Shown: positions 43,823 through 63,800 of the stretch, piece after piece | Layout of the letters: each line of letters begins with the position of its first letter | How positions within the stretch are numbered: the stretch's first letter is position 1 | Source: an uncultured Spirochaetia bacterium | Lineage (GTDB): Bacteria > Spirochaetota > Spirochaetia > SZUA-6 > Bin103 | Assembly (NCBI GenBank): GCA_958296075.1 | Contig: CATQHW010000001.1 | Span: 783,859 to 847,858, forward strand | DNA length: 64,000 nt | Direction of reading: 5' to 3' | Program-made: the position numbers and the translations under genes | Notes under the pieces: generated by a model | The model's input: the letters and a program-made list of their open reading frames with translations, nothing else | What the model was told of the DNA's origin: nothing | Databases searched by the model: none

Positions 43823-46957
<3,135 letters not shown>

Positions 46958-46960
46958 CGC

Positions 46961-47037
46961 CTACTCCACCGCCGCCAGGGTCTCGCTACGAATGCCTGCT
47001 CGGTCCGACCCTCGCATACGACAATGACGAACCTCAC
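46961..47037 (-). pseudogene. Scar of a DUF4276-like (TOPRIM-like) partner of the ATPase
   Basis: Coupled GTG start VRFVIVVCEGRTEQAFV, joined out of frame to LAAVE*. Confidence 0.7.
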
Positions 47038-48155
47038 CGTGCCGGACCTCCGCTGATCACGTTCGCCCTCCACAGATCGCCCAGCGAGTACTCTTTCAGC
47101 CAATCTCGCAGAAGTTCCGAGTCCAGCCTCTCGAAGACTGACTCTCCATCAACGCGGCTGACGACCACGACGTCTTCCGGCCGGAACTCGCTGACCAAGT
47201 CGGCGGATTGCGTGGAGACGATCACCTGCCGCGCTTCGCTCGCAGACTGGAGCATCTCCGCCAGCAAGGTAAGCGCGAACGGATGCAGCCCCAGTTCGGG
47301 TTCATCGAGCAGGATCAACCGCGGCTGCATCGCGGCGGGCTGCAGAAGCAGGGCGGCGAGGCACATGAAACGGAGCGTGCCATCCGAAAGCTGAAGCGGC
47401 CCCAGCGGCGTATCGGCATCGTCGACGTGGTACCATTCGAGCTCCATGCGCTCATCGACATCCTTGCGATATACGAAGCCGCCGAAGAACGGGGCGGCCA
47501 GCCGCACGGTGTCAACGATCTCGCGCAGTTCATGCGGATGGCGCTCATGGAGAAATCGCAGAAACGGCCCCAGGTTGGCTCCGTCCGGCTTCAACCGCAG
47601 ATTGTCGCGCACCGCCTGCGGGCGACGCACGCCCGCCACCTCGCTGGTGTCGTGGAAGTGATACCCCTGCCAGTCTCGCATTACCGGAAGCACGTAGGTC
47701 GCAAAATCACCGACCCCGGTACTCGCCGCATGCGCTTCCAGGTGGCCGCCCGACCATGCCGCTCCGTCTCCGATCGGGAAAATCGTACCGGGAGCTATCG
47801 AGTCATACTCCTGTGGCACACCCGGCGCCACGCGCTCTCGCGCGAACGCCAGTCCGTCCGCCACCGGCTCGAGCGAAAACCCGTACCGATGGCTGCCGTT
47901 GAAGGATACCTCTACCTCCAGGATCGAAGTCCGCCGGCGACCGCCGAACAGCAAGGCGTCCGCTCTACCCTCCTGCTTGACGAAGAGCTGAAGCCTGTTC
48001 CGGACAAGCTGCGACAGGAGCCGGAACACGCTCATCAAGTTGCTCTTGCCCGCCCCATTCGCTCCGATGAGGACGTTCAGTCCGCGCAACTCGAAGTCTT
48101 CCAGCGCCCGAATCGACTTGAAGCCGCGGACCGTCACTCGATCTATCGCTGCCAC
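47034..48155 (-). CDS. ABC/SMC-like ATPase (AAA_21-type)
   Basis: GANGAGKSN, LSDGT, LLDEPE, STQS. Confidence 0.9.
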   Translation of the reverse strand: MAAIDRVTVRGFKSIRALEDFELRGLNVLIGANGAGKSNLMSVFRLLSQLVRNRLQLFVKQEGRADALLFGGRRRTSILEVEVSFNGSHRYGFSLEPVADGLAFARERVAPGVPQEYDSIAPGTIFPIGDGAAWSGGHLEAHAASTGVGDFATYVLPVMRDWQGYHFHDTSEVAGVRRPQAVRDNLRLKPDGANLGPFLRFLHERHPHELREIVDTVRLAAPFFGGFVYRKDVDERMELEWYHVDDADTPLGPLQLSDGTLRFMCLAALLLQPAAMQPRLILLDEPELGLHPFALTLLAEMLQSASEARQVIVSTQSADLVSEFRPEDVVVVSRVDGESVFERLDSELLRDWLKEYSLGDLWRANVISGGPAR

Positions 48156-48167
48156 TGCATGCCTTTC

Positions 48168-49195
48168 TCAGCCGTCAATCGAAGACACGTCGTTCGTTTC
48201 GACTATCGTCGTCTCGCTGTCCTCGTCCTCATTGGTGTCGATAGACACGATGCGCGCGTTACGCAAGGACAGTCGCTGACCGTACTGCTCCAGATCGCCT
48301 CTCATAGCGACCCCCGACTTCTGCCTATGAGCCTCGGTTCACTCAGAATCCTGTCGGGTTGTGGCTCGTGGTCGCGAAACGATCGCGCTGCTTCCCGTAG
48401 AATCGCGGCATCGGCCTTGGCGAACTCAACGCTCTGCCGCGCCGACTCCATCGGCCGTGTCCGGGACCAAGTGACGCTGACATCGAGCGTCCGAAAGGGG
48501 CTGATCATCCGGTCGAGCGCTTCGCACAGGTTGGCGCTGACCCCCTTATCGACCGCCTTCACAAAGGCTCCTCTGTCGCCTGCAACCGTGCTTTCCGTTG
48601 CACTCCGCGCAGCGCCGAGAGCCTCGATCAGGCGTTTTGTCATCCGTCGTTCGATCGGGGCGTCATCTTCGGGCGAAGTCGGAGGCGGAATCAAAACCAC
48701 CAGCGCGACAACGAAACTTCCCTGTTCTGTCTGTCCCAAGCGAACTCGGCTCAGAAGGTCAGTCGCGCCCTTGTCCGCCCTCTCGTGATACAGCTCCTGC
48801 GGCTTACGCAGCGAGCACGCCGCCGCAAGGAGCATGTCGCGGGAGCCGCCGACGAGGGCGACGCCGTCATCTACCGTCGGGCTCCCGTCATCATCTCCAC
48901 CGGCTCGCACTCGAACGACATCGCGGTTGGCATTAACCAGATCGCGATAGAGGGCAAGCTCGTCGCGCTCGGCGACCTTCGTGAAAATCTCGATTAGTTG
49001 GGCTACGACGCTTGCGTAGTCCCCCAAAAGTGATGTACGCGGCAGGATGATCTCAGGCAACCCCTCGGCGGCATACACGTCGGAGTACTCGCCGTAGCTC
49101 TCGACCTTGGCCCAACCCGCTGCCTTGGCGTAGGCCGCCAACGCATCGGGAGAAATGGCTTGCAACGCGTCGTTATCCCGGATGTCCACTCTCAT
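48168..49195 (-). pseudogene. Hypothetical partner of DUF4365, probable internal deletion or frameshift
   Basis: 297-aa ORF to 48302; a plausible C-terminus MRGDLEQYGQRLSLRNARI continues in another frame. Confidence 0.6.
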
Positions 49196-49701
49196 AGGAT
49201 TCCCCTCCTCGACTGGTTCATCAGCGAACGCAGACTGTCGACGTCGAACACGTTATTCCTCGGAATCGCGACCATAACCGACGCTCGGTTGTCTGTCTCC
49301 TTGGCGTCTTTCAAGTTCAACCAATAGGCACCCCGCCGCATAATCAGCTCGTCAGCCGCGATGGTGAGCCACTGTTCTTCGTCCCTGGGCAAGTCAAGCA
49401 CGACGAGCAGGCGAGGCGTTTGCGTCTCTTCACGAAGCAGATCGTAGTTTCGGAGCTTCAACGAGAATCGACGATAGCCGTCCGCAGATACACGGAGATT
49501 CACGGTTGCTTTCAACTGAAGGTCGATCGCTGGGCGCATCTTTCCACCGGCACATACTCGCAGATCGACGCCATCTCTGTCGAAATAGCACTCCGATGTG
49601 GCATACCCAGCGGCCGCCGCTACAGCTTGCACATATGCTCGGGACAGCGCCTCTTTTCGATCTCCCATTGTAAGCAGAGCATCGGTCATACGATTGTCCA
49701 T
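49192..49701 (-). CDS. DUF4365 family PD-(D/E)xK-like protein
   Basis: DRDGVD..IDLQLKAT, NYDLLR..PRLLVVL. Confidence 0.82.
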   Translation of the reverse strand: MDNRMTDALLTMGDRKEALSRAYVQAVAAAAGYATSECYFDRDGVDLRVCAGGKMRPAIDLQLKATVNLRVSADGYRRFSLKLRNYDLLREETQTPRLLVVLDLPRDEEQWLTIAADELIMRRGAYWLNLKDAKETDNRASVMVAIPRNNVFDVDSLRSLMNQSRRGIL

Positions 49702-49990
49702 AGGACGAAGCTCCAGTGCTTGCGACGATCCGCTCGCCCAAGCGGAGTAATCAACAGGTTACTCGCCGGCGGCCAACGTGTCAACGACGTAGTGCGTCAC
49801 GGCCCCAGTTCTTCGTTTCGCTCGTGTCTTACGTCGACCAGGAGTGACGCCACCGTAACTTCAAGGTCCGTCTCAGGCTGCCGCGCAAAGCGTTCCGCCC
49901 ACCCCTGCTGAAGTTCGTGCCCGACGGCCACTACTACGACCGTGCGGCTGCGGACACCCGCGAGACTGGACGCTGGTGTGGACACGTTGC

Positions 49991-50761
49991 TCATGCGGCG
50001 AGTTCCTCACGCGATCTCTCCCGATCAGACCATGGGACCGGCTGAACGTCGTAGCTGCGCATCGCGTCCAGTACACTTTGCGAGATCGGACGATCCGAAT
50101 CGTTGAGGATGGCGTACGCGTGGGCCGCAGGCGAGCGCACTTCCCGGGTGTCCAGCCAAGCGAACGTCATCGTCTGCGCGGTCTCGCGGTTCGGGCGATT
50201 GATCGCGCGCAGCACGCGCTCCGGTCGGTTCTTCGACTTCGGTATGACGAAATCGAACCTATGATCGTAACCGCTCCTGCCGGAGAATCTCACGTTGGGC
50301 GTATATCGGATTTCGCAGGTGTCGAGCCACGCCACCACGTCTTCGTAGAACAGGCCGGCGACCATAGGCGATGCCACATAGAAAAGGTCGTTGACCGCGA
50401 GCATCGCCTGCACGAGGTTGTGCTTCCGTAATGCGAAGTTGCTCGCCGACGCCCGCACTTCCAGCTCCTTCGACGTTTCGCTGATCTGCACTCCGAATCC
50501 GTTGAGGGCCGTCCTGAGCAGGTCTTGCCGCCTCGGGCTATCGATCGTACATCCCGACTGCTCCAGATCTGCAACGGTATAGCCGTCATCCGTCAATATG
50601 AACTCACCGTCTTGACGCTTGGCGTAAATTTGAAGAAAGTCGTTGTGTCGATCCAGATAGGGAGTGGTGATTTCGACCCAATCGCGTACTTCCCGCAGAC
50701 TCGTCTGATCCCGCAACCAATTCCAGTACCGATCCAGCAGCGACTGCACGTCGTCGATCAT
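49991..50761 (-). CDS. DUF1828/DUF1829 domain protein
   Basis: [33 protein letters not shown]. Confidence 0.85.
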
Positions 50762-50990
50762 GTGAACAAACCCCGACGGGTAACAGGTCGTGCCACGATG
50801 GCGCAATAAGCCATACCATACTTCCCATGCGACGTGTACAGCGTACAGCAGCCAGTCCCACCGCTGCTCCACCCGCGGGGCCGGCGCTCCACGCCATGTC
50901 GCGGGTTCGCTTGCGGTAATGCATATTCTCACGCATTTACGCAATTTCGTCGCATCGATCGTTGAATTAACACTAATTCTCCCGTTCTCG

Positions 50991-52060
50991 CTATTTCCGC
51001 CGCGCTTTGTGTGCCGCCCAAATCCTATCTATCGACTCCATTTCCAGCGCCTCTCTCATCTTTTTGATCGCTTTGGGAGAATAGCGATGATATATTGTTT
51101 TTCCAATCCTTATCTCCTTATAGAATTCATCGTTGTCTCGAATTCGCAAATGGTCGATAAGCGCCAGTGACTTTGGAAGCGTCAGACCGACCTTACCCGC
51201 CAGCTGTTTCGCTCCAAGACTATAGAAATCCAACTCATTTACCCGTCGCATTGCGACGACGGCCTCTGCTTCCTCTTCCTCAGACTCTCGTTGAAGTCGG
51301 ACAGGTATTCCGTTATTCTTCGTAAGCCTTAGGCTGATCTTCGGGCCATCAAGATCTGAAGATATATTGATAGAAAATACCCCCGGAAAAACTGCCGGCC
51401 ACGGCTCACCGTCGGACAGACGTTTGCATATCTTGGCGAGATCATGATCGCTCGGCTGTTCGTAATCCCCACTTACCGCACCCTCCAGCACAGCCCAACT
51501 TCGTGCTTTGGCAATCGCATCCATCTTCCTTCTGGTCCCCGGTACTAAAAGCCGCCGTATTTCTTCGACATCCTTGTCGAACAGAGCTGACAAATCTCTA
51601 GGTGCCGTTGTCGACACCGGCAGGACTGTCTCGGGTAGATCGAGCACCATGCTCTGGTCAAAAACACTGTCGTGAATGTCGCGAAAAAGCGTAACGCCAG
51701 CTTGAGCGTAAAAGTACAACTCATGTTCTGACAAATCAAGCAGATAGTGCTGAGCTGCGTCGCGAAGCCCATTGATCGCCCGCAGAACAAGTGCGTACTC
51801 GGAAGTCAGAAATCTCAAGTTGCCATCGGTAAGCCCAATTCTTACGCACGCAGCGAATCCGATAGTTTGCTTTTCCCGCGGCTTTCGTATCTTACCTTGT
51901 CTATGCCGAATTGCCGCTTTCAGGAGCATCTCAAAGGAGTGATCCAGAAAGATTAGCACGGCCTCCGTTCTACCGAGGCGCCAGGGACGGTTGAAGTGTT
52001 CGATTGAAGCACCAAAGAGTTGATCGCTTTCTCGCGAAGTCGGCGAGCTTCCTTCCTCAC
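50991..52060 (-). pseudogene. DUF3644-like (HEPN-related) protein with a 1-nt frameshift near 52007
   Basis: VRKEARRLREKAINSLVL shifts into SIEHFNRPW..EMLLKA; RDAAQH is an Rx4H motif. Confidence 0.72.
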
Positions 52061-52062
52061 AC

Positions 52063-53742
52063 TTACAGCTCCGCTGTCTTTTCGACGTCACATAGTAGGA
52101 TCTCACCCGACAGCAGCTTGCGGAGGAGTAGATCGTGGACTTCTGACAGCAGCACGCATTCCCTTGTGTTCGCGACGATTTGATCGTAGAGCGGGCGAAC
52201 AGTCTCCTCATAGGCGGCAATTACCGCTCGCGACGGGACGACGACGGGAATTGTCCGGTACACGGCCTTGCTGATTTCGGCGAATGTGGAGCCACCCGCT
52301 ATGCTTCTAATGTAATCAAGGTTTTCGTAACACCAGAACAGGACGTATAGATCAGGTAGGCGGCCATTGCAGATCATGGCGATGAAGCCCTGGTTTATGG
52401 CGGCTGGCACTTCCGTGATCGCTAGATATCCGATAGGAGCACGCGACGACAAGAGAACCGTACCAATCGGAAGGACTCCCGAGCCGATCTTTTTCACTCC
52501 GGCATCGGTGATCTTCCTATTCGTCTGCACTAACACCGGTGAATGGAGCGCTGATAGATCTTTTGGCGTAGCCCAGTGATGCTTGCCGTTGTTCCAGTAC
52601 GCGGATTCCTTCGTACTGGGAGTACCGCCTCCCACAGTGTTCACTTCCTTGCCGATCTCGGATACCTCCCACCCTACCGGCCTGGCAACTAAATTCGAGT
52701 CGAGAAATCGGTCAGGGAACCGTTCGGTGAAATCTTCCGGCAGGCCAGTGTCGCGGCCTTCCATCTTGGCGCGCACGGGATCGAAGTCGACAAACCAGGA
52801 TTTGAACAACGCCCTCGCCATTTCCTCCAGAGTTTCGTTCATGCGGTGGTTCACCTCGATCTTGTCGTCGATCTTCTCAAGAACGTGGACGATGGCGCGT
52901 TGTTCTTCGAGAGGCGGAAGTGGGATGGAAATCGATCGAAGAAATGAGACCGGCTGCGCGATCGATGGTACGCCGACTTGAGACGTGTTCGCTAGTAACC
53001 GGTGCCGGCCTTCGTGCGTCTTGAAGTAGTACGCTATGAACTGCGGAATCACCTGTCGTCGATCACAGCGCAGATAGAACTGGCTTTGAGAGACGACGTA
53101 ACGGTCGTAGGTCGAATCGTCGGGAACATAGGCGACTTGGCCAATGGTTCCCCGGTGAGAGAATACTATGTCTCCTCGTTGTACGTTCGCGTTCTTCAGG
53201 CGCGCTGCATGTTCCTCCGTGATGAATTTGAATCCTGGGCTATCATCGACTCGTACTCCATGGAGATGCTGACCGCTGATGATCGGTATACCCTCCGGTA
53301 CGAACGTGTTCACTCGAATGGATGACCCGAACGGACCCATCGCTATCTTCTCGGCGATTTCCTCGATCCGCTTCTCCGGCCATACCACCTGTCGAGCGCG
53401 GTCCTTTTCTACGAACACCACGTGGTTCCGTCCGATCTGACGGTGGAATCCTTCCGGCAAGGACGCCCAGTCGCGCGCTTCCACCAGGAAGGGAACGGTG
53501 GACTCACCCACTGCCTCCATGAAGTCAGCAAGCCGCGAGTCGTCGATCCTGGCGAGACCGGGGCCGCGCAGCACGAGGTCGAGGTCGCTGCCGTCGTGGC
53601 TCTGGCCGTTCACGCGGCTGCCGTAGGCCCAGACTTCCACGTCGGACAGGTGCTTTCGCAGTAGCGCTTCGATGGTGGCGCGATGGCGGGCCGACAGGCG
53701 CAGCTTGCCGGCCGGCTGCCCCGCGGCCGGCAAGTCACGCAT
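52063..53742 (-). CDS. hsdS: Type I R-M specificity subunit with N-terminal MNT nucleotidyltransferase domain
   Basis: N-terminal YGSRVNGQSHDGSDLDLV; two TRDs, LPPLEEQRAI, ALFKSWFVDF, LLRKLLSGEI. Confidence 0.92.
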   Translation of the reverse strand: MRDLPAAGQPAGKLRLSARHRATIEALLRKHLSDVEVWAYGSRVNGQSHDGSDLDLVLRGPGLARIDDSRLADFMEAVGESTVPFLVEARDWASLPEGFHRQIGRNHVVFVEKDRARQVVWPEKRIEEIAEKIAMGPFGSSIRVNTFVPEGIPIISGQHLHGVRVDDSPGFKFITEEHAARLKNANVQRGDIVFSHRGTIGQVAYVPDDSTYDRYVVSQSQFYLRCDRRQVIPQFIAYYFKTHEGRHRLLANTSQVGVPSIAQPVSFLRSISIPLPPLEEQRAIVHVLEKIDDKIEVNHRMNETLEEMARALFKSWFVDFDPVRAKMEGRDTGLPEDFTERFPDRFLDSNLVARPVGWEVSEIGKEVNTVGGGTPSTKESAYWNNGKHHWATPKDLSALHSPVLVQTNRKITDAGVKKIGSGVLPIGTVLLSSRAPIGYLAITEVPAAINQGFIAMICNGRLPDLYVLFWCYENLDYIRSIAGGSTFAEISKAVYRTIPVVVPSRAVIAAYEETVRPLYDQIVANTRECVLLSEVHDLLLRKLLSGEILLCDVEKTAEL

Positions 53743-54166
53743 CGTCCGCTCCGTCGATGACGGCAGCCAACGTCTTGGCGTCAGCGATGAAGCCCGGCAG
53801 CAGCTTCAAGGTCGCCTCGGCGAAGCCTTCGCCATAGTCGTGGGCGATGTCGTTGCGGTTGTCGCGGTACTCCAGCCAGCGCTCGCAGACGTCCGCCGGC
53901 AGCAGGCCGTGCTTGGCGGCGTGCCGGAACACGTCCTTGAAGGTGAGCCGGTCGGCCTGCCGGTTGCTGGCGAACCAGGGTCGCAGGCGCTTCTTCAGCA
54001 GCTTGCCGCCTTGCTCCAGCACCAACTCGAACGCCTTGACGCAGGCGGCGTGGTAGATGTCGTAGAGAATGTCCTCGGCATCGTGGCCGCCAAGCTTGTC
54101 GAGCGCCAGCTCCAGGGTCCTGATGCAGCGCTTCAGATAAGTGGTGTCTATCGCCAAGTGGTCCAT
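53735..54166 (-). CDS. HEPN protein (HI0074-like nucleotidyltransferase substrate-binding family)
   Basis: ACVKAFELVLE, FKDVFR, RNDIAHDY (Rx4HxY); 8-bp overlap with MNT-hsdS. Confidence 0.88.
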   Translation of the reverse strand: MDHLAIDTTYLKRCIRTLELALDKLGGHDAEDILYDIYHAACVKAFELVLEQGGKLLKKRLRPWFASNRQADRLTFKDVFRHAAKHGLLPADVCERWLEYRDNRNDIAHDYGEGFAEATLKLLPGFIADAKTLAAVIDGADDA

Positions 54167-54337
54167 GGGTCCGGGTTCCAAACGTGAGTCGGCCAACGGT
54201 CCCGGTGAGTCCGCACGACCGAGCGCTACACCATACCACGGCGGACGCCCCGATTCGCGTCCTGCGGCGGCGCTTGACGTCGTACCGACCTCTTTACGTA
54301 CCGTACCATGCACGAAAGTCCGATAGGAGGCGCCCGC

Positions 54338-54621
54338 ATGGCGAGTGAACGGATCACGAGCTACACCGAGGCCCGTCAGAATCTCAAATCGTTGATGGAC
54401 AGCGTGATCGAGGATCGCGTGCCGGTGATCATCACGCGGACTATACGGGCGACCCGGTGAGCATGCTGTCCAAGGCCGAGTACGACGCGACGATGGAGAC
54501 CTTTCACCTGCTGCGGTCACCGCGAAACGCGGAACGCCTGCGCGACGCGATTGCCGGCATCGAAGCGGGTAACGTCGTGCACGTCGACCTCGCCGCCGGG
54601 GAGATCGCAGAGCGGCCGTGA
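54338..54621 (+). pseudogene. yefM: Phd/YefM antitoxin, frameshifted
   Basis: SYTEARQNLKSLMD..PVIITR, then in another frame METFHLLRSPRNAERL; GTAC repeats in the upstream promoter region. Confidence 0.85.
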
Positions 54622-54634
54622 GCCGGGACCGCTC

Positions 54635-54718
54635 GTGGCCATCGCATTCTCCCGGCAGGCTCGGGCAGACTACCGTAACGGTCGGTGCATCGTCGTTCAG
54701 TGTCGCTACCACTATTGA
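54635..54718 (+). pseudogene. yoeB: Txe/YoeB toxin scar (both termini fused, core deleted)
   Basis: VAIAFSRQARADYRNGRCIVVQCRYHY*; CRYHY is the typical YoeB C-terminus. Confidence 0.8.
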
Positions 54719-54731
54719 AACCGAGGTACCA

Positions 54732-56341
54732 TGGAGTTTGTCCCGCTTTCGTGGACACATCAAGAGTGAAAACGAAAAGGAGGGACTACGATGCCGAGAA
54801 CGCATCAAGCGTATCCGCAGGAGCTTCGTCAGCGGCTGGTCGAACTGGTGCACGCCGGACGCACGCCGGAGGAACTGGCTCAGGAGTACGAGCCTTCGGC
54901 CGGGTCGATCCGCAACTGGGTCGCTCAAGGTGAACACGACACCGGACAGCGCAGCGACGGGCTCAACAGCGAGGAACGTCAGGAACTGCGCCGCCTGCGG
55001 CGCGAGAACAAGCAACTGCGCATTGAACGCGACATCCTAAAAAAGCAGCGGCTTGGTTCGCTCGGGAGAGCGACTCGATCCCGGCGCGGGATTCCAGTTC
55101 GTGAAGGCGAATCAGGCCGTCTGGCCGGTGCGCACCGTCTGCCGGGTGCTGGGTCTCTCCCCCAGCGGCTACTACGCATGGGTGGGTCGCGCACCGTCGG
55201 CGCGGGCACGCCGGGATCAGCAACTGCAGGAGCAGATCAAAGAGCTCTGGGACGCCAACCGGCAGGGGTATGGACGCCCGCGCATCCATGCCGAGTTGCA
55301 GGAGTCAGGCCAGCGAGTGAGCGCGAAGCGGGTCGGGCGCCTGATGCAGCGCGCCGGCATCGCCGGGGCCAGCCGCAGGCGGCAGGTGCAGACCACCACG
55401 CGCGTGGAGCGTGCCGCGCATGGCGCCGGACTTGGTGCAGCGGGACTTCACGGCCGCCCGGGCCGACCGCCTGTGGGTAGCCGACATTACCTACGTGCCG
55501 ACGTGGTCGGGGTTTCTGTATCTGGCGGTGGTGCTCGATGTCTGGAGCCGCCGGGTGGTGGGCTGGTCGATGGCCACGCACCTGCGCACGCAGTTGGTGC
55601 TGGGGGCGTTGGACATGGCGATCTGGCAGCGCCGCCCGCGTGGCGTGGTGCATCACAGCGACCAAGGCTCGCAGTACCCCTCGATCGCGTTCGGGGTGCG
55701 GTGCCAGGAGGCTGACGTGACCGTCGACCGGCACGGTGGGCGATGCCTGCGACAACGCGCTGTGCGAGAGCTTCTTCGCGACCCTGGAGTGCGAGTTGCT
55801 GGATCGTCACCGCTTTCGCGGCCACGCTGAGGCGCGCTTGGCGGTGTTCGAGTTCATCGAGGGCTTCTCCAACCGACGCAGGAGACATTCGGCGCTGGGC
55901 TACCGGTCGCCGGTCGCCTTCGAGGCCGCTCAGAGCGGCGTGAGGGCGAGCGCATGAGCACTGCCGTGGTGGGGATCCGGGCCGTGGCAACCGGTCGCAC
56001 TGAGCCGCAGAGCGGCCCGTTGCGGCCCGTGCGAATGGCGGCTCATGACGGCGTGGCGGCTGGCCGTAGGACTCCTGCGATCTGCCCGGCGGTCGGGTCC
56101 GGGCCGGTGCGGGTGCGCCGACGCGGCTCGGACGATCGGGCGACGAGCGCCCGCGAGCGCGGTTGCCGTTGCCGTACCGTCGCGTTCGGCAGCCGCATCC
56201 TGTTGGCACGACAGAGGTCCCCAGGCCGCCGCAAGCACGAGGAGGGAGCTTGACCTGCCGGCTACGCCGGGAGGAAGGTTCCCTCTCACCGGAGTATCAA
56301 AACCTCAGCGATTACCTGTCCGCCAAACCGGGACAATTCCA
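54732..56341 (+). mobile_element. IS3-family insertion sequence with degenerate orfB
   Basis: IRL TGGAGTTTGTCCCGCTTTCGTGGACA and IRR TGTCCGCCAAACCGGGACAATTCCA; orfA at 54791; A6G slippery site 55039..55045; WVADITY, HSDQGSQY, DNALCESFF with extra frameshifts; no target duplication seen. Confidence 0.92.
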
Positions 56342-56343
56342 TA

Positions 56344-56373
56344 TTGACAAGATAAAGAATTAGGATATAGATT
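56344..56373 (+). promoter_or_regulatory. Sigma70-type promoter for the binding-protein gene
   Basis: TTGACA-N18-TAGATT (or N16-TATAGA) in an AT-rich patch right after the IS. Confidence 0.6.
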
Positions 56374-57283
56374 GTAGACGACGTCGGGGGGAGTTCCGCG
56401 ACGCTTTCCGACGAGGAGGAAACATGAAGCGACTCATCATCGGATCGATCGCGAGCCTCATGGTCATCGGCGCGAGCGCGTATGCTCAGTATGTCGAAGG
56501 ACCGTGGTTTGCGGAGCAGGTTGCGCGCGGCGACCTGCCGCCGATCGAGGAACGGCTCCCGGTGGAGCCGCTGGTGCTGGTGCCCGGCGCCGGGTACGCG
56601 TTCTCGGCCGGGGGCATGCACACCGAAGGCTCGTACGACCGCGGTTCCGTCGACATCCCCAATATCCAGGGCCTGACCTCTACGCCATTCAGCGTGCACC
56701 GGTTCGAGACCACGCTGCTGCCGTGGGCCTGGAAGGGATGGGAAAGCTCGGCCGACAACATGATCTGGACGTTCTACATGCGGGAAGGCATGAAGTGGTC
56801 CGACGGCGACGATTACACCGCCGACGACATCCTGTTCTGGTTCGAGAACGTGCACGGCGAAACCGAAGCCGCGGCTCAGTACCGGGAAGCGGGGGCACGG
56901 ACCAAGAACGCCGTGGCGGACGCTACCGAACGTATCGAGAAGGTGGACGACTACACGCTGCGCTTCCATCTCAAGGCGCCGGATCCGCGTTTCGAGTGGC
57001 TGGTCGGTCAGCGCTCCGAGCGTGAGCTGCTGAACGTCGACTCCCACTACCTGCCGCAGTTCCATCCGGCGAGCGGCGACGCCGAGGCGTTGGCCGCCAA
57101 GGTTTCCGCGGGCGAGTTCGACACCTGGATGCAGCTCTTCGACGATCGGCGCGACCAGATGGGCAACACCAATCCCGACAAGCCGCACCTGATGCCGTGG
57201 GGGCCGTCCGACCCGCCGCCGGCCAACCCGGCGGTGTTCAGCGCCAACCCGTACAACTGGATGGTGGTGGATGACCGCGTCCT

Positions 57284-57725
57284 GCCGACGCCGTGCCCGC
57301 CGACGCCGACGCCGACGCCGTTCCCGCCGACGCCGACGCCGTTCCCGATGCCGACGCAGGAGATCAATGACAACTGGGATCGGATGATCCAGGAGGCGGG
57401 CACGGACACGCTGACCGAGTTGACGCACGAGTGGTACCGCCGCCAGGCCGATCAGGTCTGGACGCTCCCGCACCTGACGTTCCCGCCGACGCCGACGCCG
57501 ACGCCGTTCCCGACGCCGACGCCGTTCCCGACGCCGACGCCGTTCCCGACGCCGACGCCGTTCCCGATGCCGACGCCGTGCCCGATGCCGACGCAGGAGA
57601 TCAATGACAACTGGGATCGGATGATCCAGGAGGCGGGCACGGACACGCTGACCGAGTTGACGCACGAGTGGTACCGCCGCCAAGCCGATCAGGTCTGGAC
57701 GCTCCCGCACCTGACGTTCCCGCCG
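57284..57725 (+). repeat. Pro-Thr coding tandem repeats plus a 145-bp direct duplication (57344..57488 / 57581..57725)
   Basis: CCGACG hexamers, 18-bp unit CCGACGCCGACGCCGTTC x4; the 145-bp copies differ at one base. Confidence 0.95.
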
Positions 57726-57736
57726 GAGCTCGACGT

Positions 57737-58222
57737 ATGAGCGTCGAGCGCGACTGGCTGACCCGGCACCCGCTGCAGGGCTGGCGGGGCGTGGCCGTGC
57801 GCGACTCACGGGACGGCGTGACCGAGCTGCGGCACGTGGGGTGCGTCGGCGACGACGTGAGCGAGACGGGGGAGGCTATGCCGGTCCCGCGCGGTACCGA
57901 CATCCCACCGCGCTGCACCGTCTGCGAGGCGCCGATCGAGCAGGCCGCCCCCGTGACCGCCGGCGATCTCGTCCCCGTCCCCGACCCGCAGACGATCGGC
58001 CAGCGCCTAGTCGGGGCCATCCGGGCCGCGATCGAGGAGGCGCAGGCCGAGGTGCAGGTAGTCCTCGACGACACCGACGATGGCAACGACCGCCGTGCGG
58101 CGACGCTGGGTCACGACCTGCAGGCCGCCGGGCTCTGGGACATGCAGGGACGGCTCGCCGACCTGATATCGGGAGCGGATATCGCAGTAGAGGCCGGATG
58201 GGACCTGGAGGAGGAGGAGTGA
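57737..58222 (+). CDS. Hypothetical acidic protein (phage-like) within the insert
   Basis: 161 aa; HxxC and CxxC motifs; stop overlaps a following GTG. Confidence 0.6.
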   Translation: MSVERDWLTRHPLQGWRGVAVRDSRDGVTELRHVGCVGDDVSETGEAMPVPRGTDIPPRCTVCEAPIEQAAPVTAGDLVPVPDPQTIGQRLVGAIRAAIEEAQAEVQVVLDDTDDGNDRRAATLGHDLQAAGLWDMQGRLADLISGADIAVEAGWDLEEEE

Positions 58223-58230
58223 GCGACAGC
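57740..58230. mobile_element. 491-bp foreign fragment flanked by duplicated ATG, carrying ORF 57737..58222
   Basis: Removing 57740..58233 gives GAC GTA TGG CAG CCC AAC in the SBP frame. Confidence 0.78.
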
Positions 58231-58332
58231 ATGGCAGCCCAACTTCAAGGGCGTCCATCCGCGGACCGGCCAGCCGTTCGAGTTCGGAGGCATGTGGTAC
58301 GAGTAGCGCGTGATCTGACCGTTCGAAACGAC

Positions 58333-58891
58333 TGAGGTGGTCCTGGAAAACTAGACAGGAGGTTAAGGTGTATTTCCAGGCCTTGAGGGGCCGACGAGAT
58401 GGCGACGAAACGGCGTCGATTCACAGCGGAGTTCAAAACCCGGGTGGCGCTGGAAACGCTGCGTGGTGACCGTACGATCCAGGTCTGCAGGAACTGTTCG
58501 CGGGCGGCGCCAGCCGCCCGCAAGCCGATCACGCAGCGACCATTCATGACCTGCACGCCAAGATCGGCGAGTTGACCGTGGAGCGCGATTTTAGCACGCG
58601 GGCTCGCGCGCTGAGCCGTGCGGAGCGACGGATGATGATCGACCGCGACCACGAAGGCTTGAGCTTGAGCCGTCAGTGCGTGCTGCTCGGGCTGAGTCGT
58701 TCGGCGCTGTACTACACGCCGGTCGGCCAGAGCGCCGAGACCTTGGCACTGATGCGACGCATCGACGAACGGTACTTGCGCTTCCCGTTCTACGGGAGCC
58801 GCAGATGGCGCGCCATCTGGCGCGTGAGGGGGTGTCGGTCGGCCGCCACCGGAGTGCGCCGGCTGATGCGCTTGCTGGGCTTGGAGGCGAT

Positions 58892-58898
<7 letters not shown>
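58333..58898 (+). mobile_element. Truncated IS3-family element
   Basis: Left end TGAGGTGGTCCTGGAAAACTAGACA; MATKRRRFTAEFKTRVALE; RQCVLLGLSRSALYY, PFYGSR, GLEAIY; DDE domain missing. Confidence 0.88.
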
Positions 58899-60532
<1,634 letters not shown>

Positions 60533-61711: not shown

Positions 61712-63715
61712 CTATTGGTCGCGGAACCAGACCTCCAGCCGGCCGAGATCGCCGCAGTGCCAGCAGTTCTCCGGATCGTCCCCGGGCACGTTGGCCATGT
61801 TGTAGGAAGTGATGATCGTGTTCACCCCACCGACGATGCCGATCGCCCACAGATTGTCGGCATGCAGGTCCGTGATCTGCTTCATCGTGGCGATCCGATC
61901 GTTCACGTCGGCCTGGGTCGCCAGCAACTGGCGAAGCGCCACGCCTTCCTTGATCACGTCCGGCGGCTCCTCGCCTTCGGCTCCGTCGGTCGCAACCCAC
62001 TGCGTCCACCTCGGCGCGAAGTAGGCGTGGTTGCTGTACGGCGCTCCGAAGCTGGCGGTCTCCAGCACGGCGGTCGAGTAGGTGGACCACGCCGGGCCGA
62101 TGTAGGCCTGCATTTCGCCGCTGTTGCGCACCGACTGCAGTCCCCCCCACCCGTCGGTCGAGCGGATGTTCATGTTGATGCCGACGTCGCCCAGGTTGAG
62201 CTTGACCAGGTCGGCCACCTCGGCGCTGTTGTACTGAATGCGGATCGTCGCGGTGAAATCCAGCGGCTTACCCTTCCACAGGCGGTTGCCGTCCTCGTCA
62301 CGCCCGGCCAAGCCGGCGCTGTCGAGCAGGCTGTTGGCCGTCTCCAGGTCGTAGTCGCCGCACACCGTGGCGGCGCGCTCGTTGTAGTACGGGCTGCGCT
62401 CGGAGTACGCCAGCGGCCCGAACGGCACCGCGCCGAAGTAGATCAGCGTGGCGATCGCCTCACGGTTGATGGCGTGCGAGACGCCGCAGCGGAAGTCGCG
62501 GTTGGAGATCAGCTCGCGCATGTCGGGATCGTTGGTGGTCTGGTTGAACTCCAGAAGTTGCGCGCCGCCGACCAGGTGCGTACCGCCCCAACTCACGGCG
62601 CGGATGGTCTGCTCGTTCGCCTCGGCCGTCTTGGCGGCCGGGAAGATGTCCAGCCCCAGGAAGATCGCCCAGTCGTACTCGCCGTTCAGCGCCCGCAGCT
62701 TGAGGACGGTCGGATCGGTGGTCGAATCCTGGCGCACCTCGTCGAAGTACGGGAGCTGCTGGCCGATCGCGTCGACCGCCAGGTAGTAGGGGTTGCGCTC
62801 GAACACGTACGTCGTGGCCGGAGCCCCAACCTTCAGCACCCACGGCGCCATGGTCGGCAGATCGGGGTTGGCGCGCGGGAAGCCCTCTCCCTCGTCGATC
62901 CGGTCCTTGAAGAACTCGGCGGCAGTCGCGAAGCCGGCCTCCTTGGCCATCGCGTCGACCTTTTCCTGCCCCGCGTACTTCGGATGGAACTGACTCAGGT
63001 AGCCCTTGTGGAACCAGACCAGGTAGTGCTCGGCCAAGCGCCCCACCTCGGCGATGTTGGTCTGCGGGTAGGTGAAGCTGAAGGTGTAGTCGTCGATGAC
63101 CTCGAACTCCGCGTCCGCGACGTGGCGCGAACCGCCGGTGACTCCCGTTCCGAACGGCTCGTAGTGGGCTACGTCTTCTACGAAGAAGGCGACGTCTTCG
63201 GTGGTGACCGGGGTGCCGTCGGAGTACTTGGCGCCCTTGCGCAGCGTCATGGTCCAGGTGCGTCCGTCATTGGACGACTCCATCGCTTGGCAGGTGCGCA
63301 GGAACTGGTTGACCTGGCCTCCGTATTCGTTGGAGCGGCACATGACCCGCGAATGGTTGCTGGCGATCGCCTCCGGCCCGTTCCCCTGGATCCTGGCGAC
63401 GTCCTGATAGGTGCCGATCTTCTTCACCTCGCTGGTGGGCAGCAGGACCAGCGGTTCGTCCGGCAGCCGCTGTTCCACCGGCGGCAGGTCCATGGCGTCC
63501 AGCATCGGCGCCTGCGTCAGCGTCAGCATCTGCCCGGTGGCCTGCTGCCACTCCGAGAGGTCCCAGGCGTTCTGGCCGTGGTTGTCGGCGATCACGGCCG
63601 CCGATCCGCCGCCAGCCATCATCGCTCCCTCGCCTTCGCCGGCAGCGAAAGCCGCGGCTGCCCCGGTGATCGTGAGCACCGCCAGCAAGCCGTAACGAAC
63701 GATCTTCTGCGTCAT
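61712..63715 (-). CDS. Family-5 (peptide/nickel-type) ABC substrate-binding protein
   Basis: Signal peptide, LPPVEQRLP, LRKGAKYSDG, ERNPYY, QQLPYFD. Confidence 0.92.
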   Translation of the reverse strand: MTQKIVRYGLLAVLTITGAAAAFAAGEGEGAMMAGGGSAAVIADNHGQNAWDLSEWQQATGQMLTLTQAPMLDAMDLPPVEQRLPDEPLVLLPTSEVKKIGTYQDVARIQGNGPEAIASNHSRVMCRSNEYGGQVNQFLRTCQAMESSNDGRTWTMTLRKGAKYSDGTPVTTEDVAFFVEDVAHYEPFGTGVTGGSRHVADAEFEVIDDYTFSFTYPQTNIAEVGRLAEHYLVWFHKGYLSQFHPKYAGQEKVDAMAKEAGFATAAEFFKDRIDEGEGFPRANPDLPTMAPWVLKVGAPATTYVFERNPYYLAVDAIGQQLPYFDEVRQDSTTDPTVLKLRALNGEYDWAIFLGLDIFPAAKTAEANEQTIRAVSWGGTHLVGGAQLLEFNQTTNDPDMRELISNRDFRCGVSHAINREAIATLIYFGAVPFGPLAYSERSPYYNERAATVCGDYDLETANSLLDSAGLAGRDEDGNRLWKGKPLDFTATIRIQYNSAEVADLVKLNLGDVGINMNIRSTDGWGGLQSVRNSGEMQAYIGPAWSTYSTAVLETASFGAPYSNHAYFAPRWTQWVATDGAEGEEPPDVIKEGVALRQLLATQADVNDRIATMKQITDLHADNLWAIGIVGGVNTIITSYNMANVPGDDPENCWHCGDLGRLEVWFRDQ

Positions 63716-63800
63716 TCGGTCCTTCCTTCGTCTTTGGTATGGATTCGTCATGGTACCGCCGCGCGACCCGCCGCGCAAGCTCCGGCCGCGATGATCGGTT

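Follow-up and report, generated by a model that had tools for sequence, protein, structure and literature searches.

We report a predicted toxin-antitoxin (TA) pair in which the antitoxin is the N-terminal domain of a type I restriction-modification (R-M) specificity subunit, found in a window of 64,000 nucleotides (nt) from an uncultured Spirochaetia bacterium (assembly GCA_958296075.1, contig CATQHW010000001.1, positions 783,859 to 847,858 of the forward strand, numbered here from 1). A gene for a HEPN protein overlaps an open reading frame (ORF) that begins with a minimal nucleotidyltransferase (MNT) domain and continues in frame into HsdS. The details given in an earlier note on this DNA, namely a HI0074-like HEPN with Rx4HxY, an intact GS-x10-DxD MNT, a full HsdS with two target recognition domains (TRDs) and an 8-bp overlap, were all found to be correct by Pfam, motif and structure comparisons. 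We consider it moderately probable that HEPN and MNT form a type VII-like TA cassette of the class I HepT/MntA kind within a mobile type I R-M operon, and that the antitoxin exists only as the N-terminus of HsdS; HEPN toxicity, AMPylation of its tyrosine and any defence role are what we infer from the sequence. Type VII-like TA pairs and R-M-linked HEPN toxins are known; the fusion of the antitoxin to HsdS is, as far as searched, a new variant of these and looks like a real and so far undescribed means of coupling a suicide module to DNA restriction.

Domains of the pair and predicted complex

The 143-residue HEPN matches NTase_sub_bind (PF08780) at 9.8e-15 (55.1 bits, Pfam cut-off 31.8) and, in a search against solved structures, HI0074 (1JOG) at 7.7e-9. 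In the fused protein, residues 11-115 match NTP_transf_2 in Pfam with 24.3 bits (cut-off 21), Polbeta and MTPAP-like matching as well, and the MNT profile finds HI0073 (1NO5) at E 1.2e-17 over its whole length (chain residues 6-107 of 114); the characterised HepT/MntA (5YEP, E 0.012) and Legionella pairs are weak matches in the same structure search. Methylase_S is found in two stretches (2.8e-35, Pfam) and the PADLOC model Specificity_I covers residues 126-557 (1.8e-115), PADLOC having no model for HEPN or for the MNT part. An AlphaFold2 model of the whole protein gives a local confidence (pLDDT) >90 at residues 121-559, with two TRDs and long helices at 278-327 and 505-545, and one of 33-66 for the MNT part, whose placement against HsdS is not readable from it. 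The genome to which the window belongs has a single MNT copy and a single HEPN copy, with no spare antitoxin.

R104, H109 and Y111 of HEPN are invariant in 24 aligned relatives chosen for an intact motif. GS..DxD is kept in 119 of the 120 best MNT relatives, in whose alignment the invariant residues include G41, R43, D55, S81, P84 and W92, with W121 nearly invariant. Passages of PMC7641770 describe transfer of AMP by the GSX10DXD protein MntA to the tyrosine of RX4HXY in HepT, report that mutation of this tyrosine leaves the toxin toxic and harder to neutralise, and include PF08780 with PF01909 in class I. The 8-bp overlap between the two genes is, judged from its layout, a translational-coupling arrangement, and among 66 related loci in which a HEPN lies upstream, 36 or more show this -8 overlap too.

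The pairing of HEPN with MNT supposed in the earlier note also held up in complex modelling. With 24-row alignments for each partner, MNT (residues 1-115) and HEPN gave an ipSAE of 0.84 (three runs, 0.84-0.85) compared with 0.00 for the best of three controls, a mark reached by 116 of 157 solved complexes and by 2 of 215 mismatched pairs. Contacts agreed 100% between runs, partner pLDDT was at least 83, and the predicted interface joins MNT residues 49-53 and 79-86 to HEPN residues 75-102. This result may partly reflect likeness to solved HepT-MntA complexes.

Recurrence of the fusion

A word-indexed protein search with residues 1-150 as the query, limited to targets of 307-979 amino acids (aa), found 1227 of 2249 length-matched candidates to be related, and precomputed Pfam annotation places Methylase_S in 117 of the 120 best relatives and PF08780 in 17 of the 120 as well. 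When 1.84 billion cluster representatives were scanned without an index, with residues 1-135 as the query, 1906 proteins matched at E<=1e-3, of which 492 reached 1e-10 and 69 reached 1e-30. HsdS-like sequence follows the MNT in 99 of the 150 best representatives, 47 of these 99 being at least 450 aa long and many others being fragments. With hundreds to thousands of database proteins, the architecture is common enough for a genuine type of system. One relative, P0075, carries HEPN-MNT fused to DUF4365 instead of HsdS. In a plasmid collection, tblastn found one weak stand-alone NTase match only, on a Legionella adelaidensis plasmid, which is uninformative on plasmid mobility.

Genomic loci were collected by a pattern search of one genome per species in 185,579 species, in which 297 of 350 pattern matches were confirmed (MNT fused or not) and the best 80 kept (L-numbers below); these are the closest MNT relatives and no random sample, and all are metagenome-assembled genomes (MAGs). 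They come from at least nine phyla: Spirochaetota, Pseudomonadota, Acidobacteriota, Binatota, Rhodothermota, Gemmatimonadota, Nitrospirota, Latescibacterota and Bacteroidota. Classified by tblastn and ORF logic, 42 of the 80 are fused (the MNT frame continues through 350 or more residues of HsdS), 34 are short (an MNT ORF below 170 aa) and 4 are other, being frameshifted or fused to something else. Co-occurrence with an upstream HI0074-like gene, which the earlier note proposed as a check, is borne out: 38 of the 42 fused loci have a PF08780 HEPN immediately upstream, which is a separate window-like protein in 30 of them, stands in the same frame in 2 (L001, L004), and is of a more canonical type in the 6 that encode MNT-MNT-HsdS proteins (L009, L030, L036, L039, L044, L052). 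Most fused loci with HEPN also have hsdM upstream. In the window, as in every related locus, HEPN comes before MNT, so that the pair is adjacent without the antitoxin-first order of type VII. In the taxonomic family of the window, MNT was found in 15 of 23 other genomes, in fused and short forms both, and in 0 of 37 genomes from the seven other families of the order. A divergent MNT subfamily from the same family of genomes (37-40% identity) is again fused to HsdS, with the order hsdM, HEPN (PF08780), MNT-HsdS in L094 and L096; an insertion sequence (IS) adjoins in L095. The spread over many MAG phyla indicates that the R-M/TA cassette moves as a unit between distant bacteria.

The earlier note had named a one-off lost stop codon or a sequencing error as what would undo its proposal, and the MNT-HsdS fusion is neither: it recurs in the fused loci, in the database relatives and in the divergent subfamily. 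Contigs from four DNA runs of one sample, which is possibly the source sample so that they are not independent of the assembly, span both the junction and the overlap with no indel. One crossing contig of 1114 nt is a co-occurring variant with 47 substitutions and 0 gaps relative to the window. This variant (window 52862-53975) is the more abundant one, differs by about 4% and carries HEPN H86Y, a histidine that is invariant in the 24-row alignment.

G+C content falls from 0.68 to 0.55 at the MNT/HsdS junction of the window. A recent accidental join as the cause was rejected, because HsdS lies more than 0.03 below MNT in 36 of the 42 fused loci and above it in none; the step is general across the family and marks TRD DNA.

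A number of side observations were made on these loci. Further double-MNT proteins are P0016, P0052, P0060, P0090, P0095, P0104 and P0110; in double-MNT proteins a second, different MNT precedes the window-like one, and the canonical PF08780 HEPN lies upstream with a 4-nt overlap. The inner MNT of L030 has lost the first Asp of DxD, and the HEPNs of L009 and L039 have lost H or R. In L009, L022, L030, L038 and L060, a DUF559/MTES_1575 domain (Vsr-like endonuclease fold) is inserted after the first TRD, giving proteins of 724-896 aa, and in L015 (5989-8166) the MNT-HsdS frame runs after the first TRD into an IS4/IS5-type transposase (DUF4096 and DDE_Tnp_1), so that this hsdS is IS-disrupted. 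Immediately ahead of HEPN, L009, L030, L044, L036 and L024 carry a second copy of the hsdM 3' end (roughly its last 55 codons), with the full hsdM further upstream and, in L009 and L030, a Fic gene between the two; this arrangement suggests that the hsdM 3' end serves as a recombination arm for swapping of the HEPN-MNT-hsdS cassette.

TRD exchange, decayed operons and the favoured mechanism

Proteins that are 88-93% identical over residues 1-150 are 62-68% identical overall, and the linker between MNT and TRD1 varies by about 34 residues; among 120 proteins examined, 58 had both motifs findable and in 55 of these the distance from the MNT DW to MGPFGS of TRD1 was 40-74 residues. From these comparisons, the MNT is a conserved 5' module with exchangeable TRDs behind it. 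In other loci the R-M genes have decayed around the pair. In L034, intact HEPN and MNT follow a 3' fragment of hsdM, and of hsdR the C-terminal 440 codons remain; L040 and L050 similarly have intact HEPN and MNT between hsdM and hsdR fragments. The hsdM 3' piece alone is kept just upstream in nine short loci, and L010 and L031 share the PhyH and PNP flanks of the window, which enclose HEPN and MNT alone. Gene fragments show the direction of change in L034, L040 and L050; for L010 and L031 it is a parsimony inference. Survival of HEPN and MNT after the R-M genes is, as far as such comparisons tell, the behaviour expected of an addictive TA pair, and the relics with HEPN and a bare MNT show that tolerance of the toxin does not depend on the HsdS part.

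The proposal of the earlier note that the cell might be addicted to this specificity allele is not supported and was rejected. TRDs differ behind MNTs that are 88-93% identical, HsdS is lost and MNT kept in the short forms, and the TRD variation together with the decayed operons argues against addiction to an allele. Addiction at the level of the operon is the best-supported role on present sequences. In this mechanism, HEPN would be translated first and ribosomes would continue via the overlap into MNT-HsdS, whose MNT domain would bind HEPN and adenylylate Tyr111 beside the R104-x4-H109 RNase site, keeping the RNase silent. The fusion would make control of the toxin depend on ongoing expression of the 5' end of hsdS, and the cassette would therefore stabilise the operon as an addiction module without binding the cell to a particular specificity; possibly it would also serve as a back-up at the RNA level in infections that make expression of the host operon collapse.

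Evidence against the favoured reading, and rival explanations

Several observations weigh against a TA cassette of the HepT/MntA kind. At the level of families, HEPN reaches 44.7 bits against the NCBIfam model TIGR01987 (HI0074; cut-off 55.8), and the HepT_toxin and MntA_antitoxin equivalog models score 21.2 and 20.9 bits (cut-off 60). The order HEPN then MNT is the reverse of the MNT-first pairs in passages of PMC7641770, and no published TA test of the HI0073/HI0074 pair was found in the literature consulted. AMPylation is covalent, so that stopping antitoxin synthesis alone does not free toxin that is already modified. In the window itself the operon is broken by IS DNA between hsdM and HEPN, leaving hsdM 4.7 kb off. 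On a quick MNT tree of 100 columns with many forks unresolved, the fused and short states need at least 18 changes, so that the fusion appears not strictly needed; phylum labels need 21 changes compared with a minimum of 8, and the pattern fits frequent decay and transfer between phyla. No HEPN was found in 4 of the 42 fused loci (L022, L032, L063, L067), and the window-like HEPN is degenerate at R or H in the fused loci L019, L021, L047, L054, L056, L074 and L076. The MNT motif is nevertheless intact in 10 of the 11 fused loci with a dead or absent HEPN, which a simple TA reading does not predict; such MNTs may have a HEPN-independent role, may serve a paralogue in trans or may decay slowly. 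Paralogues in the same genome (L032 with L051, L048 with L067) could explain part of them, and in L074 the DxD of MNT has decayed too beside its degenerate HEPN.

These intact MNTs would suit an accessory enzyme, in which MNT, with HEPN as its substrate-binding subunit, nucleotidylates HsdM, HsdR, DNA or a small molecule and so regulates restriction, there being no TA pair at all; the family names NTase_sub_bind and 'HI0074 family nucleotidyltransferase substrate-binding subunit' likewise cast HEPN as the partner of an NTase. We regard this as very improbable, as the RNase residues and acceptor tyrosine of HEPN are conserved as in proven type VII toxins, and as HEPN and MNT outlast complete loss of the R-M genes. 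Among separate HEPNs with intact R..H, the tyrosine is present in 22 of 22 at fused, 19 of 24 at short and 3 of 3 at other loci.

It is also conceivable, and in our estimate doubtful, that HEPN-MNT is a selfish hitch-hiker lodged between hsdM and hsdS, whose fusion spread neutrally with the R-M island, loss of the MNT stop being harmless because both domains fold independently. The frequent interchange of fused and short forms on the tree, the apparent sufficiency of a bare MNT in the relics, the variable linker and the loss of R or H in 11 of 62 aligned window-like HEPNs are all in keeping with such a history, as is the existence of other MNT fusions (IS transposase read-through in L015, DUF4365 in P0075 and an unknown partner in L062). 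Neutral spread accounts poorly for a fused state that holds the majority of both the loci and the best cluster representatives, is common to MNT subfamilies of 37-40% identity and survives TRD replacement. Many short forms, moreover, are decay products beside hsdM, hsdS or hsdR fragments and not unfused ancestors.

A third alternative takes up the guard idea of the earlier note and makes HEPN a PrrC-like guard: latent, docked via MNT on the M2S1 or R2M2S1 complex, and switched on by Ocr, ArdA or Stp-like inhibition or by a change of assembly on foreign DNA, thus placing abortive infection behind restriction. We think it unlikely, if somewhat less so than hitch-hiking. Evidence for it comes from in-frame HEPN-MNT proteins, a set of 19 made up of 17 database proteins with L001 and L004, in which one locus is probably the same gene as one protein and one protein ends in DUF4365. 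The acceptor tyrosine is present in none of the 19 (E, D or G instead) and R..H is kept in 16 of the 19, a pattern in keeping with control through tethering or assembly and not through AMPylation. As the triple fusions appear to form a single clade, the loss of tyrosine may be one evolutionary event; it hints at control by assembly state. As individual examples, one-frame HEPN-MNT-HsdS is encoded by L001, L004, P0005-P0009, P0032, P0049, P0059, P0063, P0064 and P0071, and further by P0072, P0088, P0089, P0097 and P0101, with lengths of about 650-720 aa.

That the fusion is kept in two MNT subfamilies and in nine or more phyla while its TRDs are exchanged also favours a guard, as do the predicted HEPN-MNT interface, which would put HEPN on HsdS, and the precedent of PrrC-EcoprrI in passages of PMC3710099 and PMC12707154. 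Parts of PMC13000451 further describe a fused MNT that silences HEPN by blocking dimerisation even without AMPylation, which gives a rationale for Tyr-less triple fusions and supports a latent subunit. On the other hand, Pfam finds no ATPase or other sensor domain in the 143-residue HEPN, and the relics tolerate HEPN with a bare MNT after the whole R-M system has gone; integrity of the R-M complex is therefore not needed for silencing. A bolder form, to which we give equally little credence, makes the HEPN RNase a stoichiometric latent subunit of the type I complex, docked via MNT or, in one clade, fused. Because HEPN RNases need dimerisation, HEPN would be inactive as long as its complex contains one HsdS, and would be activated by disturbance of the complex or by an encounter of two complexes on unmodified DNA. 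If this were true, restriction and abortive infection would be one machine, and the Tyr-less triple fusions would represent AMPylation replaced by assembly control.

The type I R-M island of the window

Returning to the cassette in its own setting, the pair sits in a type I R-M island with both the hsdM and hsdR partners at the locus and on the same strand (Table 1), and the best reading of the operon appears to be hsdM, HEPN, MNT::hsdS, embedded defence genes, hsdR. In L001, the closest relative, HEPN-MNT-HsdS aligns collinearly with its counterpart in the window at 79% identity over 2083 nt and is abutted by hsdM, from which it follows that the operon of the window was split by insertions. 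The island is flanked by a PNP_UDP_1 phosphorylase gene on one side and a PhyH dioxygenase gene on the other.

Table 1. Features of the HEPN/MNT-HsdS pair and of the surrounding R-M island (window coordinates)
Feature	Position	Strand	Remarks
HEPN gene	53735..54166	-	143 aa; HI0074 / PF08780 family; predicted RNase toxin
HEPN motif R104-x4-H109-x-Y111	53834-53857	-	reads R104-N-D-I-A-H109-D-Y111 (RNDIAHDY)
MNT-HsdS fused ORF	52063..53742	-	559 aa; HI0073-like MNT in frame with two-TRD HsdS
Overlap of HEPN stop (TGA) and MNT-HsdS start (ATG)	53735..53742	-	8 bp, coding strand ATGCGTGA
MNT domain	53398..53742	-	residues 1-115 of the fused protein; predicted adenylyltransferase antitoxin
MNT motif GS-x10-DxD	GS 53617-53622, DLD 53578-53586	-	G41-S42 ... 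D53-L-D55
Linker MNT-TRD1	53383..53397	-	about residues 116-120
HsdS proper	52063..53382	-	residues 121-559 and stop codon
TRD1	about 52912-53382	-	HsdS part
Central conserved helices	about 52762-52911	-	HsdS part
TRD2	about 52231-52761	-	HsdS part
C-terminal conserved helix	about 52066-52230	-	HsdS part
hsdM	58892..60496	-	N6_Mtase 3.7e-103, HsdM_N 5.6e-27
hsdR	43823..46957	-	1044 aa; HSDR_N, SWI2_SNF2, T1RH-like_C; PADLOC REase_I E 0
Embedded genes between hsdS and hsdR	47034..52220	-	four candidate defence modules; Pfam, PADLOC
DUF3644 HEPN (PDC-S19)	50991-52220 (ORF as listed)	-	PADLOC 1.6e-140; directly after hsdS
DUF1828/DUF1829 (PDC-M24B)	49991-50944	-	
DUF4365 and 297-aa partner (PDC-M02A/B)	48302-49701	-	
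AAA_21 ATPase (HEC-01A-like)	47034-48155	-	HEC-01A 7.6e-122
Inserted or rearranged DNA between hsdM and HEPN	54174..58898	.	4.7 kb; Pfam; absent from L001
Phd/YefM antitoxin gene, broken by in-frame stop	54308-54621	+	50-aa and 54-aa pieces
IS3-type transposase in pieces	54791-55830	+	HTH_Tnp_1, HTH_21, rve in three frames
SBP_bac_5 fragment	56424-57740	+	438 aa; internal duplicated segments, Pro-Thr-rich repeats
Second transposase fragment	58399-59039	+	truncated copy
Full SBP_bac_5 gene	61712-63778	-	

As to the embedded genes, the DUF4365 gene with its partner and the AAA_21 ATPase (window 47034-49701) are conserved with L001 between hsdS and hsdR, and L001 is without DUF3644 and DUF1828/1829. 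The DUF3644 ORF as listed overlaps the 3' end of hsdS by 158 nt, and its true start is probably further in. According to parts of 10.1101/2024.01.29.577857, the tested defence gene HEC-08 has DUF3644 as its HEPN domain. Beside the AAA_21 ATPase in the window, no ORF for the TOPRIM partner of HEC-01 was seen. Within the inserted DNA, the Phd/YefM gene is divergent from the HEPN gene with no toxin partner identified, and its region is conserved in L002-L004.

Comparison with known systems

HEPN toxins have long been seen to cluster with R-M genes and predicted to be PrrC-like (passages of PMC3710099, PMC3506569 and PMC3632139), and the R-M-associated HEPN domains described in parts of PMC3710099 have nuclease, helicase or ATPase subunits as fusion partners, methylases not being among them. 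The full-text literature, with subscription journals and REBASE outside its scope, contained no description of an MNT-HsdS or HEPN-MNT-HsdS fusion that we could find. The legend of Figure 5 in PMC3710099 defines 'RM_TRD', so that a TRD gene may figure in one of the operons shown; as far as searched, the fusion is thus undescribed, with earlier cataloguing possible. It makes an enzymatic antitoxin part of the subunit common to methyltransferase and restriction enzyme, with one clade fusing the toxin too, and two genes with hsdM offer a compact, clonable test case of whether TA modules in immune operons serve for addiction, as back-up effectors or as guards.

The closest solved relatives of the MNT and HEPN are HI0073 and HI0074 of Haemophilus influenzae (1NO5, 1JOG). 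HI0073 is a 114-residue stand-alone protein, whereas the domain of the window continues into a 440-residue HsdS, and the HI0073 gene precedes HI0074. HepT/MntA of Shewanella oneidensis (SO_3166/SO_3165; PDB 5YEP) resembles the pair in having an RX4HXY HEPN and a GSX10DXD MNT in one operon, and differs in that the window has the toxin gene first and an antitoxin that is the N-terminal domain of HsdS instead of a free-standing protein. FhepTA of Shewanella, as described in parts of PMC13000451, has HEPN and MNT on one chain like the triple-fusion clade; it has the order MNT-HEPN and keeps the acceptor tyrosine, whereas the triple fusions have the order HEPN-MNT-HsdS, have lost the tyrosine in all 19 cases and carry an R-M module.

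PrrC, at the EcoprrI type IC locus, shares with the window a gene for an HEPN-fold RNase inside a type I hsd operon and the idea of a latent RNase that the R-M complex holds, but it has its own ABC ATPase regulator and no enzymatic antitoxin, while the regulator in the window is an NTase domain covalently within HsdS. The PrrC/RloC-type architecture, an N-terminal ABC ATPase with a C-terminal HEPN, is not that of the window HEPN; in L009 and L022, AAA_13 occurs as separate genes. These AAA_13 ATPase genes, from the family to which PrrC/RloC-type proteins belong, lie directly after MNT-HsdS (L022:8358-10670, L009:8382-10676), and in L022, which is without a HEPN gene, the AAA_13 match is full length (3.7e-162). 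Finally, DarTG2 in the RRDM island of enteropathogenic Escherichia coli (EPEC; passages of PMC12255303) and the HEC systems (parts of 10.1101/2024.01.29.577857) resemble the window in that defence or TA genes are nested in type I R-M or Hma loci between hsd genes; in the accounts given there these are separate genes between hsdS and hsdR, whereas in the window the antitoxin is translationally fused to an R-M subunit.

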